Shown here in pieces: positions 6,829 to 24,538 of a DNA stretch of 28,726 bases. This stretch comes from Abditibacteriaceae bacterium (GTDB lineage Bacteria > Armatimonadota > Abditibacteriia > Abditibacteriales > Abditibacteriaceae). The translations under genes and the position numbers were made by a program. The stretch spans positions 1 to 28,726 of the forward strand of contig JANMKN010000013.1 in assembly GCA_031372065.1 (NCBI GenBank). The letters run 5' to 3'. The notes beneath the pieces were generated by a model, which saw only the letters and a list, made by a program, of their open reading frames with translations, made no database searches and was not told the origin of the DNA. How positions within the stretch are numbered: position 1 is the stretch's first letter; each line of letters opens with the position of its first letter.

Positions 6829-6876
6829 GCAGAGGCATCCGTATTCTTTAAACTAAAACGCACTTTGCGTCACTCC

Positions 6877-7164
6877 ATGCTCCCCAAACCGCCCGCCGAT
6901 GCCACTTATGGCTACGATCTCGAAAAACTGCTGACCGTTTCTGCGCCGCAAGGCCCGCCCGATTTCGCCGATTTCTGGCAGAAAACGTATGCCGCCGCGC
7001 GCCAAGTGCCGCTCAACATCGCCAAAAGGCAAATCGAAAGCGGCGATCCGCAAATTCACCTCTTTGAAATCGAATTTGACGCGCTCGGCACCGATTCGCT
7101 CGCGCCGCAACGCATCGGCGGCTGGCTAACGGTTCCCGCCGATGGAAAATTCGTAGGGACGTGA
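6877..7164 (+). pseudogene. truncated acetylxylan esterase / cephalosporin-C deacetylase-like (CE7) N-terminal fragment
   Basis: PPDFADFWQKTYAAA...FEIEFDA...RIGGWLTVP matches the AXE1 N-terminus. The frame runs into a REP palindrome and stops before the hydrolase core. Confidence 0.75.
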
Positions 7165-7255
7165 TTCATCACGTCCGCTGTCGGGCATCTGTGCCTTTTA
7201 AGGCGTGCCAAACCGCAGTTGCAGTCAGGCGGACGTGATAAATCACGTCCCTACG
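7152..7255. repeat. GTAG-type REP doublet (REPIN-like)
   Basis: Arms cgtagggacgtgattcatcacgtccgc (7152-7178) and gcggacgtgataaatcacgtccctacg (7229-7255) are inverted with 26/27 identity. Each arm is itself a palindrome with a terminal GTAG. Confidence 0.85.
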
Positions 7256-7260
7256 GAGGC

Positions 7261-7350
7261 AAAAAACCCAAATTCCCCTCAAAAACCCTTGTTTTCCCTC
7301 GAAAAAACGCGCTAAAATGTCGTTAATCCTTGTTTTTCGTCCGATTTTTT
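7261..7350. promoter_or_regulatory. phased A/T tracts (probable curved DNA or leader)
   Basis: A or T runs start near 7261, 7270, 7281, 7292, 7302, 7314, 7323 (weak), 7333 and 7345, about 10-11 bp apart. Confidence 0.5.
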
Positions 7351-7531
7351 GGCGCAATCGCTTATTTTATGGCGCGATTGTTCAGAAACATGGCGCGATC
7401 TTCTATCTTGTGGCGCGACGGCCCAGAAGCATGGCGCGATCTTCCAGAACGTGGCGCAAACCTTTATCTTATGGCGCGGCGCTTCGGAGGCATGGCGCGA
7501 TTCTCTATCCAATGGCGCGAACTTATAGAAC
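7349..7531 (+). repeat. non-coding tandem array of 9 units of 20-21 bp, core RTGGCGCR
   Basis: Cores at 7349, 7369, 7390, 7410, 7431, 7451, 7471, 7492 and 7512. A degenerate tenth unit lies at 7532-7552. Confidence 0.9.
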
Positions 7532-7591
7532 GTGAAAGAGGCTTCCAGAAAAGGACGGGACGATAAATCAGGATAAATTTCAGTTAGGAGC

Positions 7592-8293
7592 ATGATAGAA
7601 ATGCAGTTACAAACGCAGCGCTATTTAAAGCGCATCAGAGACGTCAAAGTGTGGATAGCCGATAATAATGCGGCTTTGACAACCGTTCCGGCCTATGCCG
7701 CGCTCAAAACTGCCCTCAACACGCAGGAAACCGACATCGAAACGCACGCGGCGGATTTTGTCGCCAAAGCGGGCAATTCGAGCCAAAACGTGGTGCTCAA
7801 AGCGCAGTTACTCGACGCCGTGCGCCATGATTTATCGGACATCGTGCGTGGCGCGCAGGCCATTGACGCGACGCAACCCGGCTTTGCCACCAAGTTTCAA
7901 TTGCCCGCGTCCAAAGGCGAAGAATCGGTCATCGGCGCGGCGCGCGTTTTCCTCGGCCATCTGAATGAAACCGCGATTCATGACGCCTTTTTGCAAATTG
8001 GTATGCCCGCCGACCTCAAAGACGATTTAGCGCTGGACATTCAGCACTTCGACGACTACGACAGCACGATGGAAGCTGCGAATCAGGGCCGCATCGCTGA
8101 ATTGCGCGCCTTAGAAACAGCCATCGCCGCTGCCTCGCGCACCGTTGATGCCTTGGATGCCATCATCTATTTCAAGTTCGCCAACGACAAAGCCAAAATC
8201 GCCAGTTGGAAGCAAGCCAAACGCCTCGAAAAAGCCCGCGCCCACCGCGAAGCGCGCAAAGTCGCCGCGAACAGCACAACAACGACAGCCTAA
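7592..8293 (+). CDS. hypothetical alpha-helical protein (233 aa)
   Basis: AGGAG RBS directly upstream, Ala/Leu-rich amphipathic sequence, and a strong hairpin downstream. No catalytic motif recognised. Confidence 0.85.
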   Translation: MIEMQLQTQRYLKRIRDVKVWIADNNAALTTVPAYAALKTALNTQETDIETHAADFVAKAGNSSQNVVLKAQLLDAVRHDLSDIVRGAQAIDATQPGFATKFQLPASKGEESVIGAARVFLGHLNETAIHDAFLQIGMPADLKDDLALDIQHFDDYDSTMEAANQGRIAELRALETAIAAASRTVDALDAIIYFKFANDKAKIASWKQAKRLEKARAHREARKVAANSTTTTA

Positions 8294-8340
8294 ACCAACA
8301 AGCGCCCCGCGAAAATGAATTCGCGGGGCGCTTGTTGGTT
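8293..8340. terminator. perfect 21-bp-stem hairpin (terminator or REP-like)
   Basis: aaccaacaagcgccccgcgaa (8293-8313) pairs with ttcgcggggcgcttgttggtt (8320-8340), 6-nt loop. Confidence 0.75.
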
Positions 8341-8747: not shown

Positions 8748-8789
8748 GCCGGTTGGAAACAGGCCCAACACCTCGAAAAAGCCCGTGCC
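8748..8789 (+). repeat. 42-bp diverged copy of 8201-8242 (3' end of the helical-protein gene)
   Basis: 36/42 identity. Reads AGWKQAQHLEKARA versus ASWKQAKRLEKARA. Confidence 0.85.
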
Positions 8790-11082: not shown

Positions 11083-12255
11083 TCAGTCAGCTTTTTCAAA
11101 AATCAGCACGCCAATGTGCCCGCCGAAGCCATAATTCAGGCTCATCACGGTTTGCAAAGGCATTTCGCGCCCGCACGAATCGCTCGTAAGCGGAATATAA
11201 TCCAAATCACAATCGTCGTCGGCTTCTTCCAAGTTCAACGTCGGCGGCGCGTAGTTTTCGCGCAAGGCTTGCAAGCAAATCACGGCTTCCACCGCGCCCG
11301 CCGCTCCGAGTAAATGGCCGGTCAGCGGCTTGGTGGACGAAACCGGCACGCCGCTTCCAAACACGCTTTTAATGGCGCGCGATTCGATGGCATCATTGAG
11401 CGGCGTGGCCGTGCCGTGCGCGTTAATGTAATCAATTTTCGGATTGCCCGCACGCTTCAAAGCGCGCTCCATCGCCCGCGCAATTGAAGCGCCGGACGAA
11501 TTCATGCCCGTCAACGAAGTCGCATCGGCGCCCATATCGTAGCCCGTCACATAACCATAAATTTCCGCGCCGCGCTTGCGGGCGTGTTCTTCGTTTTCGA
11601 GAACAAGCGCGCCAATGCCTTCGGAAGGCACAAAACCGTCGCGCCGTTTATCGAATGGGCGCATGGTTTTCGATTTACTCAGCGCGCCGATCTGTCGATA
11701 GCCCGCCATAACTAACGCTGTAAGCGAGGCTTCAACAGCGCCACACAAAATCCAATCGGCTTGTCCCCATTGAATCATTTGCGTCCCGCGCGCAATGCAA
11801 TGCGCGCCGGTGGCGCAAGCGGCAACAGGACTTGGCGCGGCAAATCCGGCGGCAAGCCACGGCAAATCGCACGTCCAACCTAAATATGGCACATTCCATT
11901 TGCGCTCGCGGCCCTCATGAAAGCGCAAATAATCATTTTCCAGCCAGAATAAATCGCCTTTAGAAGAAGAGAATATGGTGGCAGCCCGCTCGGATTCTAT
12001 TTTTAATTTTCTGAAAGGAAAGGCGTGCCACTGCTGTAATGCCACCCAAAGCGAAGAAGATAATCCGCGCATATTTTTTTGGCGATAGCGGGCCGGTTCA
12101 TAATTAACGCGCGCCGCTTCGGTCAAACCGTGCAGCGTAATGTGTTCCTGGCGCGAATGCAAACGCCAGCGCCAAGCACGCCGTTTTGGGCCACCAAAAT
12201 GCGCCATGAAATCCGTTACCGCCACGCGCGGCGCGTTTGAATTGGTGTTCGACAT
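11083..12255 (-). CDS. beta-ketoacyl-ACP synthase (FabF-like) with divergent N-terminus
   Basis: AACATG (Cys), RPFDKRRDGFVPSEG, YINAHGT, STKPLTGHLLGAAG and SLNYGFGG. Confidence 0.88.
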   Translation of the reverse strand: MSNTNSNAPRVAVTDFMAHFGGPKRRAWRWRLHSRQEHITLHGLTEAARVNYEPARYRQKNMRGLSSSLWVALQQWHAFPFRKLKIESERAATIFSSSKGDLFWLENDYLRFHEGRERKWNVPYLGWTCDLPWLAAGFAAPSPVAACATGAHCIARGTQMIQWGQADWILCGAVEASLTALVMAGYRQIGALSKSKTMRPFDKRRDGFVPSEGIGALVLENEEHARKRGAEIYGYVTGYDMGADATSLTGMNSSGASIARAMERALKRAGNPKIDYINAHGTATPLNDAIESRAIKSVFGSGVPVSSTKPLTGHLLGAAGAVEAVICLQALRENYAPPTLNLEEADDDCDLDYIPLTSDSCGREMPLQTVMSLNYGFGGHIGVLIFEKAD

Positions 12256-12291
12256 TAACTTAAATTCCAGTGCGCTGGTAGATTATCGCCG

Positions 12292-12540
12292 CGCACGAAC
12301 GGCTTTTAGGCCCGCACGAAACGAATTTCACCTGCGCGAATCATCTTTTACACGCACGAAACGCCTTTGCCTACGTGCGAAATGGATTTTACGCCGCACG
12401 AACCATCTTTTGCGCGCACGAACCATCTCTGCAAGCTCGGCAGCCATCTCTGCAAGCGCGGCAACCATCTCTGCACGCGCGTGAGCCATATTTGCACTTG
12501 CGCAGAACACTTTTGCACCTGCACGAAGCGTTTTTCAGCC
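12292..12540 (+). repeat. non-coding tandem array of 12 units of 20-21 bp, core YGCACGAA
   Basis: Units start at 12292, 12313, 12333, 12353, 12374, 12395, 12415, 12436, 12457, 12478, 12499 and 12520. Confidence 0.85.
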
Positions 12541-22009: not shown

Positions 22010-24538
22010 ATGATTACCAGCCGTTTTCCGGCAAGTCCCGGACAGCCTTCGTTCAAACGCCGTATTTCGCCACTGTTGGTTTTGGGTGGCATGGCCGCAT
22101 TCGGATGCCTCGCGCCCATTGTAGCGCCACAGAGCGCGCCGCAAGTGCAAGCGCAAGAAGCGCAAGGCGCCATCAATGTTTACATCAACGACAAACCGTT
22201 AAATTTTGGCACGGCCCGCCCTGCCCGCATTGGAGGCCGCGTTTTCGTGCCGATGCGCGCCATTTTTGAAGGTTTAGGCGCGCAAGTGCAATGGGACGGT
22301 GCTACGCAAAGCATCAACGCCCAGCGCGGCGCCACTGTGGTGCAAATGCAAATCGGCAATCGCAACGCCACCATCAACGGCAACGCTGTGAACCTTGACC
22401 AGCCGCCGTTGCTTTATGGCGGCGCCACGATGGTGCCTTTGCGCTTCGTCGGCGAAGCCCTGGGCGCTGAAGTGCGTTGGAGCGAAATCCAACAGTCCGT
22501 TTTTATTACCAGCAACACCGGTAGCGGCAGCAATCCGTTGCCTAATCCGGGCACCACACCGGGAACAATACCCGGCACCACACCTGTCACACCAGTAACA
22601 CCCGGAACCATACCGGTAATCCCGGTAACACCAGGCACCATACCGGTCAACCCCGTCCCACCAACCACGCCGCAAAGCAATGAAATCGTTGGCACCGTTG
22701 TCAAGGCCGATGCCACTCCGCCCGCCACTATCACTGTGCGCAGCAAAGACGCCAACGGCGCGGCAACGGTGGACACCTATCAGATTTCGCCCGGAGTGCG
22801 GCCTCAACGGAGTTATGCCCGCTTTCCGCAACAGGCTGGCGCGCAACCCGATTGGCAAGCACCAACGCCCGTCGCCTTGGCTGCTCTGATAGGCGGAGAA
22901 GAAGTCAATTTGAAATTGAATGCCAACAGGCAAGTCTCGATGATCAACACGCAAGTGATGTTGGCTCCGGGACAAGTCAAAAGCGCGACGCGAGATCAAA
23001 TTGTGTTGAACGATGGACGCGACACCACGTTAAAAATTGGCGATCAGGTGAAATATGTCAACAAAGCCGGACGCCCCAATATGGGAGTAGATGTGCGCCC
23101 CGGCGACAACGTCGCCTTGTTCGTGGCACCTTCGACTTACACCATTTTTGCGGTCTACGGACGCGATGAAGAAGTCAAACAAGCGGGTGGCACGCCAAAT
23201 CCAGTGACACCGGGCACAACTCCTTTTATCCCCGGCACAACTCCTATTGTCCCCGGCACGACGCCTGGCACAGTGCCACCAATCAACAATGGCCTGATTC
23301 AGGCTGTGACGCATAACGCCACACAACCACTGAAGGCAGGCTCTACCATCAACATTACGGTGCGCGGCACCATGACGGGCTTGCGTGGCTCGTTCACCGT
23401 ATCGCCACGCATGGCCGCGCTGCCTTTAGTTGAACGTGCTGATCGTGCGGGAATCTACACCGCTGTTTACACCGTGCAACCCGGCGACGATGTGCTGAAC
23501 GGACGCGTCACAGTGGCGATGACTGGCCCAAACAATGTCGTGGACACGCAGCAATCGCAACAACCAGTGACCATTGACACCTCAGCGCCGCGCATTACGG
23601 GCGTCTTTCCTTCCAATGGCAGCCAAACCAACAACACCATGCCGAATATTGCGGTTTACGCCGATGATATTGGCGGCAGCGGCCTCGCGCGCGGCACCAT
23701 CAGCCTGACGCTGCCCAACGGACAAACTGTCAACGTGCCAGCCGTCGTTGTGGTCGGTGGTTTGAGCGGCGAAACACCGCGCGCTTTGCCTCCGGGCCAA
23801 ATTAGCTTGCGCGCCACGGCAAGCGATGCCGCAGGAAACGAAACACAGGCGATTTCGGTGTTTACCGTAATGGGCAATGCGCCCGGCGCGGTCAATGCGG
23901 TAACGCACAACGCCCGCGCCACCCTGCGCGGCAATGACGTGCTGGTAACTGAACTGCGTGCCGATGCCAATGGCCGCGCTACCTTCGATTTAGTTGGCGA
24001 CAACAACCGCCTGATTGCGGTCAACTTACCGATGCGCGAAATCGAAGCGGGCCGTTATCAGGGCACTTACACCGTGCAAGGCAATGAAGGCACCAATAAA
24101 TTGCGTGTCGTGGGCCGCTTCACGGGCGCCGATAATCGCACCGTCACCAACGAAGCCACCACTATGGTCACGTTGTCCACCGCTCCCGCCGTGCAAAAAG
24201 GCGTCCTGAGCATAACGGCCCCCACCGATAACGCGCAAGTGCAATCGCCCCTCACGGTGCGCGGACGCGCTTTAGGCGGCGCTATTGTGGATGTGGCGAT
24301 TCGCGCCGAAGGCACCAAAGTCACACGCGTGTTGCTTTTCGAGAGCCGCCGCCCTTATACGCAGGAACTCGGCACGCAGCAAATTCAGGCCAATAACAAC
24401 GGCGTTTGGTCTACGCGTCCGATTGAACTGCCTAAGCCCAAAGATGTCGAAGATCTCCAATTCGTCATCACCGTGACGCAAACCGACAGTCTCAATCGCC
24501 GCAGCGATCCGATTACCATTACGGTGAAACCGCAGTAA
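22010..24538 (+). CDS. large exported protein: copper-amine-oxidase N-terminal-like (stalk) domain, Pro/Thr linkers, Ig-like beta domains
   Basis: GRVFVPMRAIFEGLGAQVQWD and GATMVPLRFVGEALGAEVRW. TPGT repeats, DTSAPRI...ASDAAGN (Big-like) and two AVTHNA-starting domains. Confidence 0.85.
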   Translation: MITSRFPASPGQPSFKRRISPLLVLGGMAAFGCLAPIVAPQSAPQVQAQEAQGAINVYINDKPLNFGTARPARIGGRVFVPMRAIFEGLGAQVQWDGATQSINAQRGATVVQMQIGNRNATINGNAVNLDQPPLLYGGATMVPLRFVGEALGAEVRWSEIQQSVFITSNTGSGSNPLPNPGTTPGTIPGTTPVTPVTPGTIPVIPVTPGTIPVNPVPPTTPQSNEIVGTVVKADATPPATITVRSKDANGAATVDTYQISPGVRPQRSYARFPQQAGAQPDWQAPTPVALAALIGGEEVNLKLNANRQVSMINTQVMLAPGQVKSATRDQIVLNDGRDTTLKIGDQVKYVNKAGRPNMGVDVRPGDNVALFVAPSTYTIFAVYGRDEEVKQAGGTPNPVTPGTTPFIPGTTPIVPGTTPGTVPPINNGLIQAVTHNATQPLKAGSTINITVRGTMTGLRGSFTVSPRMAALPLVERADRAGIYTAVYTVQPGDDVLNGRVTVAMTGPNNVVDTQQSQQPVTIDTSAPRITGVFPSNGSQTNNTMPNIAVYADDIGGSGLARGTISLTLPNGQTVNVPAVVVVGGLSGETPRALPPGQISLRATASDAAGNETQAISVFTVMGNAPGAVNAVTHNARATLRGNDVLVTELRADANGRATFDLVGDNNRLIAVNLPMREIEAGRYQGTYTVQGNEGTNKLRVVGRFTGADNRTVTNEATTMVTLSTAPAVQKGVLSITAPTDNAQVQSPLTVRGRALGGAIVDVAIRAEGTKVTRVLLFESRRPYTQELGTQQIQANNNGVWSTRPIELPKPKDVEDLQFVITVTQTDSLNRRSDPITITVKPQ

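Follow-up and report, generated by a model that had tools for sequence, protein, structure and literature searches.

A tandem array of nine 20/21-bp units and the helical-bundle protein gene that follows it, found in the genome of an Abditibacteriaceae bacterium, are real and lie outside every family tested. New here is a single genome with some 265 arrays outside genes and some 80 helical genes that lack annotation, together with array families that include gene-less siblings and the absence of arrays from 39 of 39 comparable sites in a congener. The array sequences vary while their period stays constant, and the pattern recurs in another phylum. The results listed by literature searches include no description of this module of a gene and a phased array, and the protein-plus-repeat system is apparently undescribed so far. 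The best explanation, which is offered tentatively, is that the cognate protein would bind the array as DNA, at sites spaced two helical turns apart that were later copied elsewhere. The features of the window, i.e. the whole stretch of 28,726 nucleotides that was analysed, are collected in Table 1.

The array and its surroundings

The nine units of the array read ttggcgca-atcgct-tatttt, atggcgcg-attgtt-cagaaac, atggcgcg-atcttc-tatctt, gtggcgcg-acggcc-cagaagc, atggcgcg-atcttc-cagaac, gtggcgca-aacctt-tatctt, atggcgcg-gcgctt-cggaggc, atggcgcg-attctc-tatcca and atggcgcg-aactta-tagaac, starting at 7349, 7369, 7390, 7410, 7431, 7451, 7471, 7492 and 7512 with spacings of 20, 21, 20, 21, 20, 20, 21 and 20. 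Their tails follow the order A, B, A, B, B, A, B, A, B, an alternation that is broken once and produces a 41-bp higher-order unit; the periods reported by TRF are 41, 21 and 61. The earlier note, made from the letters alone, had listed the same units, spacings and tail order and had proposed a higher-order unit of about 41 bp, all of which was reproduced. The core motif [ATG]TGGCGC[AG] has a genome-wide frequency of 5.5e-4 per base per strand, and the 184-nt array holds nine copies, all in phase, against 0.10 expected. The array sequence is identical in contigs of two public DNA runs (spanning 7127–8163 and 7016–8092), which belong to one study and are possibly the source samples themselves; no RNA run is among the public runs listed as containing the sequence.

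A gap of 59 nt separates the end of the array at 7532 from ATG 7592, and three of the six frames across the array are free of stops. Because the spacings break codon phase, no peptide repeat is present and the open frame of the gene begins only five codons before ATG 7592, the array is taken to be non-coding, as the earlier note had held when it denied that it was a peptide repeat. A decayed heptad-coding ORF, one of the outcomes that the same note had named as speaking against its reading, was considered and is unsupported, since the spacings break phase and no peptide repeat is found. Folded as RNA, neither strand of the array does better than shuffled sequence (z −0.69 and +1.79), and an Rfam search of the array returned no match near gathering score and no CRISPR repeat match.

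Table 1. Features of the window around the cassette and of the second array
Feature	Coordinates	Strand	Basis or remark
GTAG-type REP-like doublet, 27-nt arms	7152–7255		left border of variable region
Best sigma-70-like promoter candidate, TTGTTT-18-TAAAAT	7289–7318	+	predicted, weak; 8.4 bits; upstream of array
Imperfect inverted repeat around array, 20 nt, 80%	7323–7342 with 7558–7577		repeat search
Nine-unit 20/21-bp array	7349–7532	+	core RTGGCGCR, 6-nt middle, tail class A or B
Gene of all-helical bundle protein, 233 aa, large unnamed family	7592–8293	+	ORF, profile, predicted fold
Perfect 21-bp hairpin after stop	8293–8340		multi-copy hairpin family
3′-only remnant, 42-nt 86% copy of gene 3′ end (8201–8242)	8748–8789	+	sequence match
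Second array, without a gene, from a different family (that of the C146/C210 paralogs)	12253–12530	−	absent at site in G001, G002

The promoter candidate was scored with E. coli weights and lies below the threshold of a separately used terminator/promoter scan; as the best candidate of the locus stands upstream of the array, the array may be in a leader. The earlier note had described the gene as closed by a strong hairpin, and a perfect 21-bp hairpin is indeed there, but it lacks a T-run and is absent from the terminator scan output. Members of the same hairpin family are found 3′ of a paralog on contig C102 and 3′ of a gene remnant in genome G003. A copy of the gene 3′ end 0.5–1 kb downstream of the intact gene brackets a small membrane-protein gene, and a like arrangement occurs at C265:14129–14252 of the same genome. 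The REP-like doublet need not belong to the cassette. An acetyl xylan esterase (AXE1) gene at 6865–7255 of the window is truncated at this doublet, while congener G002 carries an intact 298-aa version (L071); further copies of the GTAG-type REP lie on contigs C46, C355, C309, C219 and C348. Elsewhere in the window, an 842-aa gene (22010–24538) contains internal 21-bp (23213–23266) and 30-bp (22547–22649) tandem repeats that code for Pro/Gly/Thr-rich peptide repeats and are unrelated to the arrays.

The helical-bundle protein

Homologs fit a start at ATG 7601 (230 aa) better than one at ATG 7592 (233 aa). A direct search with the 233-aa protein finds one close relative (71%), and a profile of 16 sequences extends the family to 4,920 cluster representatives (E 0.001), of which 596 reach 1e-30. 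AlphaFold2 predicts a confident, rod-shaped, all-helical bundle (pLDDT 95) with helices at 2–24, 33–92, 110–124, 127–135, 142–195 and 200–209. No consistent Pfam family was found among 150 homologs or 14 paralog representatives, and neither a PDB sequence search nor PADLOC gave an above-threshold match for the protein. Foldseek searches of PDB and BFVD returned no match at E 0.001, VIA-align found generic bundles only (Z at most 10.7), and no Nop, Cas, Rep or transposase entries were among the fold matches listed. The description of the gene product in the earlier note as an uncharacterised helical protein, for which it had proposed structure prediction and Foldseek, thus holds. DUF6261 (PF19775), a family linked to HagB, was an Atlas lead at 0.87 only and was rejected, matching 0 of 150 homologs and 0 of 14 paralog representatives.

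The family alignment has no invariant column, and its conserved columns, which are hydrophobic, Pro/Trp/Asn or Arg/Lys, i.e. structural or basic, show neither an HUH nor a DDE, Tyr or Ser catalytic pattern. The conserved basic positions are R10, R17, K70, R74, R78, R86, R89, K101, R103, R118, R186, R193, K195 and R214, of which six are replaced in this protein (D17, L74, Q89, Q103, D186 and Y193); the mean net charge of the family is about zero. Viral contigs, plasmids and JGI metagenome contigs yielded no relative with the queries used. Among the loci L194–L248, homologs also come from contigs labelled Verrucomicrobiota and from a small number of MAG contigs with unexpected labels (Clostridia, Akkermansia, Actinomycetota), which may be binning errors.

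Association of arrays with the gene

The genome contains 13 profile hits, and after two contig-end 3′ halves are left out, 10 of the remaining 11 have an upstream signal of period 20, 21, 42 or 61, as compared with 81 of 1,465 control genes. Among 55 loci from other genomes, mostly Acidobacteriota, 50 have enough upstream sequence; a period of 20, 21, 41, 42 or 63 is found upstream in 30 of these 50, as compared with 1 of 48 windows downstream of the gene and 0 of 40 windows far upstream, counts that are not independent as the genomes are related. Autocorrelation of homolog flanks was the check that the earlier note had proposed for its array and gene cassette, and it supports that cassette, upstream arrays being far commoner in homologs of two phyla than in control flanks.

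The other 20 of the 50 loci have no upstream array period. A sister genus contributes eleven syntenic orthologs (11 genomes), which make up one array-less clade (FastTree support 0.999) at a conserved site next to a gene that reads as fabH in translation. This clade looks like a domesticated version of the protein, and with it as evidence the protein needs no adjacent array. Its members (L035, L036, L040–L045, L049, L051 and L004) are single-copy, syntenic and have a basic C-terminal tail. The neighbourhoods of acidobacterial homologs contain no recurring partner gene, and no partner ATPase is among the recurring neighbours.

The motif G[CT]GC[AG], which was picked post hoc, is enriched in the arrays of this protein subfamily, and protein similarity correlates weakly with array similarity (rho 0.21, permutation p 0.02; 0.11 for pairs below 50% identity). 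Judged from these sequence comparisons, recognition of arrays may be subfamily-specific, though the indication is a weak one. In the gene-linked arrays of this genome the period follows the protein subfamily: a group of ~310-aa proteins with a helical and a beta domain and the C404/C277/C34 group have 41/42-bp units that often contain hairpins and a more frequent upstream promoter, and the shorter groups have mostly 21-bp units. A separate class of arrays has a 14-bp period; 14 of the 1,465 control genes have one upstream, and some homologs from Acidobacteriota have one downstream (L214, L220).

The array population of the genome

A scan for periods of 20, 21 and 40–42 nt found 286 regions in the genome and none in 1.98 Mb of shuffled sequence; 270 regions are at least 90 nt long, and all except five deep within ORFs make up the 265 extragenic arrays. 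When neighbouring genes were clustered, 80 proved to encode helical bundles, in some cases followed by a C-terminal beta domain, and 60 of the 72 with enough flank have the upstream period, a figure that is partly circular because array neighbours served as seeds. Comparison of profiles between this family and the C129-type cluster gave a probability of 4%, so homology may not extend to all of the 80 genes. The array families are unrelated in unit sequence, and their autocorrelation peaks only at 20–21, 41–42 and multiples, a 7-nt sub-period being absent. Many of the 41/42-nt units contain hairpins, and some arrays are very homogeneous.

Single linkage, a method that can chain unit types, sorts the arrays into 131 sequence groups. 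A gene-linked array is present in 48 groups, and 36 of these 48 also have gene-less members, some of them at contig ends. The array at 7349–7532 has two siblings, both gene-less: a nine-unit array on C132, between desaturase-like and NUDIX-like genes (named from their translations), and a decayed one on C161. Both have whole units in common with it, including the 6-nt middles, and among the recurring middles are ATCTTC-TATCTT in C11 and C132, ACGGCC/ACGGCT, and AACCTT, AACTTC and AACCTC. The 6-nt parts that the earlier note called variable are present as it listed them, but they are not unique, and their recurrence among siblings points to a shared vocabulary and not to guides or acquired spacers. 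The second array of the window (12290–12500) is in turn a sibling of the array before the paralogs on C146 and C210. The single cassette of the earlier note stands, while the gene-less siblings and the genome-wide population lay beyond its view.

Within families the polarity of the array relative to the gene is constant, and gene-less siblings occur in either orientation to their neighbouring genes. Of the 209 unlinked arrays, 48 show some inverted content. Among the gene-less arrays there are head-to-head doubles, made of an array and its reverse complement, and others that join the units of two families; loci noted for either are C14:1614–1970, C25:18892–19055, C295:2690–2908 and C68:6984–7291. 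Three acidobacterial genomes queried with their own gene-linked array contain 1, 1 and 2 siblings, defined by the lack of a helical-gene match within 1.5 kb, and A-tracts are strand-biased in 17 of 22 acidobacterial arrays.

Empty sites and routes of spread

The array at the 12.3-kb position of the window is absent in the congeners G001 and G002, where the flanking genes abut via a stop/start overlap. The synteny comparison covered 2.4 Mb of the 5.3-Mb G002, in which one such gene and one real array are found, adjacent to each other. Both flanks are syntenic in G002 for 42 of 227 testable arrays, namely 0 of 44 gene-linked cassettes as compared with 42 of 183 unlinked arrays, and once three coding or short arrays are dropped, G002 lacks the array at 39 of 39 syntenic gene-less sites. 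Gain of the arrays in this lineage would be the simpler reading of these absences, the 12.3-kb site being compared in two relatives and the others in G002 alone. The arrays occupy intergenic spots where G002 often carries REP-like palindromes. Exact junctions are unreadable as the intergenic DNA is too diverged at ~80% identity, and since the flanks of the cassette at 7349–8293 are non-adjacent in the congeners, there is no empty site for this cassette itself.

Flanking direct repeats that could represent a target-site duplication are found for 13 of 218 arrays and 63 of 925 controls, i.e. at background. Single cases of a flanking duplication were noted on C317, C364 and C404, and a ~13-nt degenerate one at the 12.3-kb array of the window. 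Siblings have no shared ends, and a shared terminator is seen in 2 of 68 against 1.9%. A protein match lies near 5 of the 209 unlinked arrays: two of the five are gene-linked arrays missed by the rule, one match is array-derived, one is a 5′ fragment and one is the sibling on C298, a clear internal deletion that retains the array, the promoter and the 3′ end of the gene. Isolated gene remnants are mostly 3′ ends, including the one at 8748–8789 and one in G003. The Y1 transposase family PF01797 has seven matches elsewhere in the genome and does not match the helical gene, and no match to the reverse transcriptase family PF00078 was found in the genome, whose assembly is 94% complete. The arrays would most likely have spread by host recombination or slippage together with decay of duplicated cassettes, a route favoured by the lack of a catalytic signature in the protein.

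Promoters and the nature of the element

Scored with E. coli weights, 19 of 53 cassettes have a strong promoter-like site in the interval from array to gene, as compared with 7 that have one upstream of the array and 6 and 4 in antisense (Wilcoxon p 0.004); 3 of 65 gene-less arrays have one beside them. With the predicted promoter in this place many arrays would fall outside the mRNA. In several cassettes of the 41/42 type, as at this locus, the best predicted promoter is upstream of the array, which would be transcribed there. Taken together, the predicted positions favour a DNA element beside a promoter.

B-DNA makes one turn in 10.5 bp, and the arrays are phased repeats at whole helical turns beside the predicted promoter of the gene. 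The reading of the arrays as DNA sites for the cognate protein is supported by the fixation of the period at 20–21 or 41–42 bp across unrelated sequences, by the association of array and gene in two phyla, by the conserved basic columns, by the lack of RNA structure, by the predicted promoter placement in many cassettes and by the occurrence of gene-less siblings in either orientation. It is proposed that the rod-shaped protein would coat the array that lies just upstream of its gene and would likely regulate its own adjacent promoter, and that it would also bind the gene-less siblings in other parts of the chromosome; DNA binding, autoregulation and the specificity of each subfamily for its own array are what we infer, and the bundle fold and promoter positions are predictions. 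The same reading is weakened by the lack of a recognisable DNA-binding fold, the near-zero net charge of the family and the six basic residues absent from this protein, by the upstream promoter at this locus, the array-less clade and the 20 array-less loci out of 50. Furthermore, it leaves the origin of more than 200 gene-less arrays unexplained, as only one internal-deletion derivative and one 5′ fragment lie beside the 209 unlinked arrays. A bolder and doubtful proposal is that of a new protein-plus-repeat replicator or chromosome-addressing system in which dozens of divergent rod proteins of one genome each recognise their own phased array family and drive or stabilise its intergenic spread without known transposase chemistry; it would amount to a natural library of orthogonal protein-DNA address pairs in several phyla.

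A rival reading is that of a bipartite selfish element: the protein, acting by itself or together with a host or Y1 enzyme, would mobilise its cognate array, and gene-linked copies would then be autonomous and gene-less copies non-autonomous, in the manner of REPINs with RAYTs. Gene-less members in 36 of 48 gene-containing families, the 39 empty sites in G002 and the 12.3-kb site empty in G001 as well, the contrast in synteny between gene-linked and unlinked arrays, an array load that tracks gene load (one gene and one array in 2.4 Mb of G002), the acidobacterial siblings and the use of spots often filled by REP-like palindromes in G002 all fit such an element. It is nonetheless unlikely, given conserved columns without an HUH, DDE, Tyr or Ser pattern, target-site duplications at background level, siblings without common ends and a search of viral contigs and plasmids that yielded no relative for the queries employed. 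Also improbable is an array that is transcribed and acts as a repeat RNA, a leader or small RNA bound or coated by the protein. The upstream promoter and the inverted repeat that brackets the array at this locus, the single array polarity within families, the strand bias of A-tracts and the hairpins in many 41/42-nt units are all compatible with it, but the array folds no better than shuffles, 19 of 53 cassettes have the promoter downstream of the array, such promoters are rare beside gene-less arrays and the period is that of B-DNA turns. Between the two mechanisms that the earlier note had offered, same-face DNA sites or a repeat RNA, the former is thus the better fit in terms of period constancy, RNA fold and promoter placement, with the reservation that the best promoter here is upstream.

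It is more improbable still that the arrays are a by-product, i.e. promoter-proximal minisatellites amplified by slippage that hitch-hike on an often duplicated and transferred gene and are left gene-less after its decay. The C298 sibling, the recurring 3′-only remnants, the homogeneity of some arrays and the persistence of array-less orthologs are what this would predict; the equal period of 20–21 or 41–42 in unrelated sequences of two phyla is left unexplained by it, and gene remnants are scarce beside the 209 unlinked arrays. Least credible, and strongly disfavoured, is a TIGR-like guide array of two alternating repeats with 6-nt split spacers, or else a decayed heptad ORF. The alternating tails with their 41-bp unit and the three stop-free frames recall one or the other, yet the 6-nt parts recur within the array and its siblings, the alternation is broken once, codon phase is disrupted and Nop is found neither by Pfam nor among the fold matches listed.

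Comparison with known systems

Iterons and operator or centromere arrays are phased direct repeats of ~21–22 bp beside the gene and promoter of a presumed binding protein. The arrays described here differ in being chromosomal with dispersed siblings, and the protein has no Rep, ParB or ribbon-helix-helix Pfam match and no partner ATPase. If the proteins do bind their own arrays, theirs would be a nucleic-acid-binding fold that has gone unrecognised, and its many specificities would be orthogonal by nature. CRISPR arrays have 25–36-nt repeats with unique spacers of similar size, whereas the whole unit is 20–21 nt here and has no Rfam CRISPR match. Unlike a MITE or IS derivative, the arrays show no target-site duplication above background and no shared ends.

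TIGR-Tas systems, as far as the available text describes them, have alternating edge and loop repeats, unique 8–9-nt split spacers, 36-nt guide RNAs and a Nop domain (PMC12045711). Two alternating short repeat types beside the gene of a largely helical protein of similar size are a likeness to this account. In contrast to it, the middles here are common to the siblings on C132 and C161 and not unique, the alternation is broken, the higher-order unit is 41 and not 36 nt, the unit of most of the related arrays is a single one of 21 bp and gene-less siblings are dispersed. No Nop domain was detected, in that the 150 homologs have no Pfam match to one and neither Nop nor Tas is among the fold matches listed. 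Helical genes with a beta domain and arrays are present in this genome, and the 233-aa protein has no extra domain.

In the accessible part of a genomic language model survey, the main periods are 5, 18 and 60–79 nt, and clusters with a multiple-of-3 period and a lag-3 peak are dropped (10.64898/2026.10.21.760802). The STAR elements of Staphylococcus aureus are one family with a 14-bp motif and spacers of at least 40 bp (PMC3532100). They resemble the present arrays, on that text, as dispersed intergenic direct repeats of lineage-specific abundance whose function and dispersal route are obscure, but it names no cognate gene for STAR, and the arrays of this genome form dozens of families that keep to a fixed helical-turn period and are linked to a protein superfamily.

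In REPIN-RAYT systems, according to the portions of the sources at hand, the gene is flanked by its own repeat family, of which many extragenic copies are gene-less, and a genome may have several cognate pairs; REPINs are ~100-bp inverted REP doublets, and RAYTs are single-copy, vertically inherited and have HUH and tyrosine motifs (10.1101/2021.07.10.451892, PMC3116915). On this description, the bipartite layout and the gene-less extragenic relatives of the gene-side repeat are shared. The arrays here are direct tandem repeats of 20/21 or 41/42 bp, the one at 7349–7532 has no stable fold and is no inverted doublet, the gene encodes a helical bundle with no PF01797 match and no conserved HUH or Tyr column, and the cassettes are multi-copy and non-syntenic. 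Should the proteins also spread the arrays, the population would resemble REPINs while running on another engine, and it would give dispersed intergenic repeats of obscure origin a source that can be put to the test.
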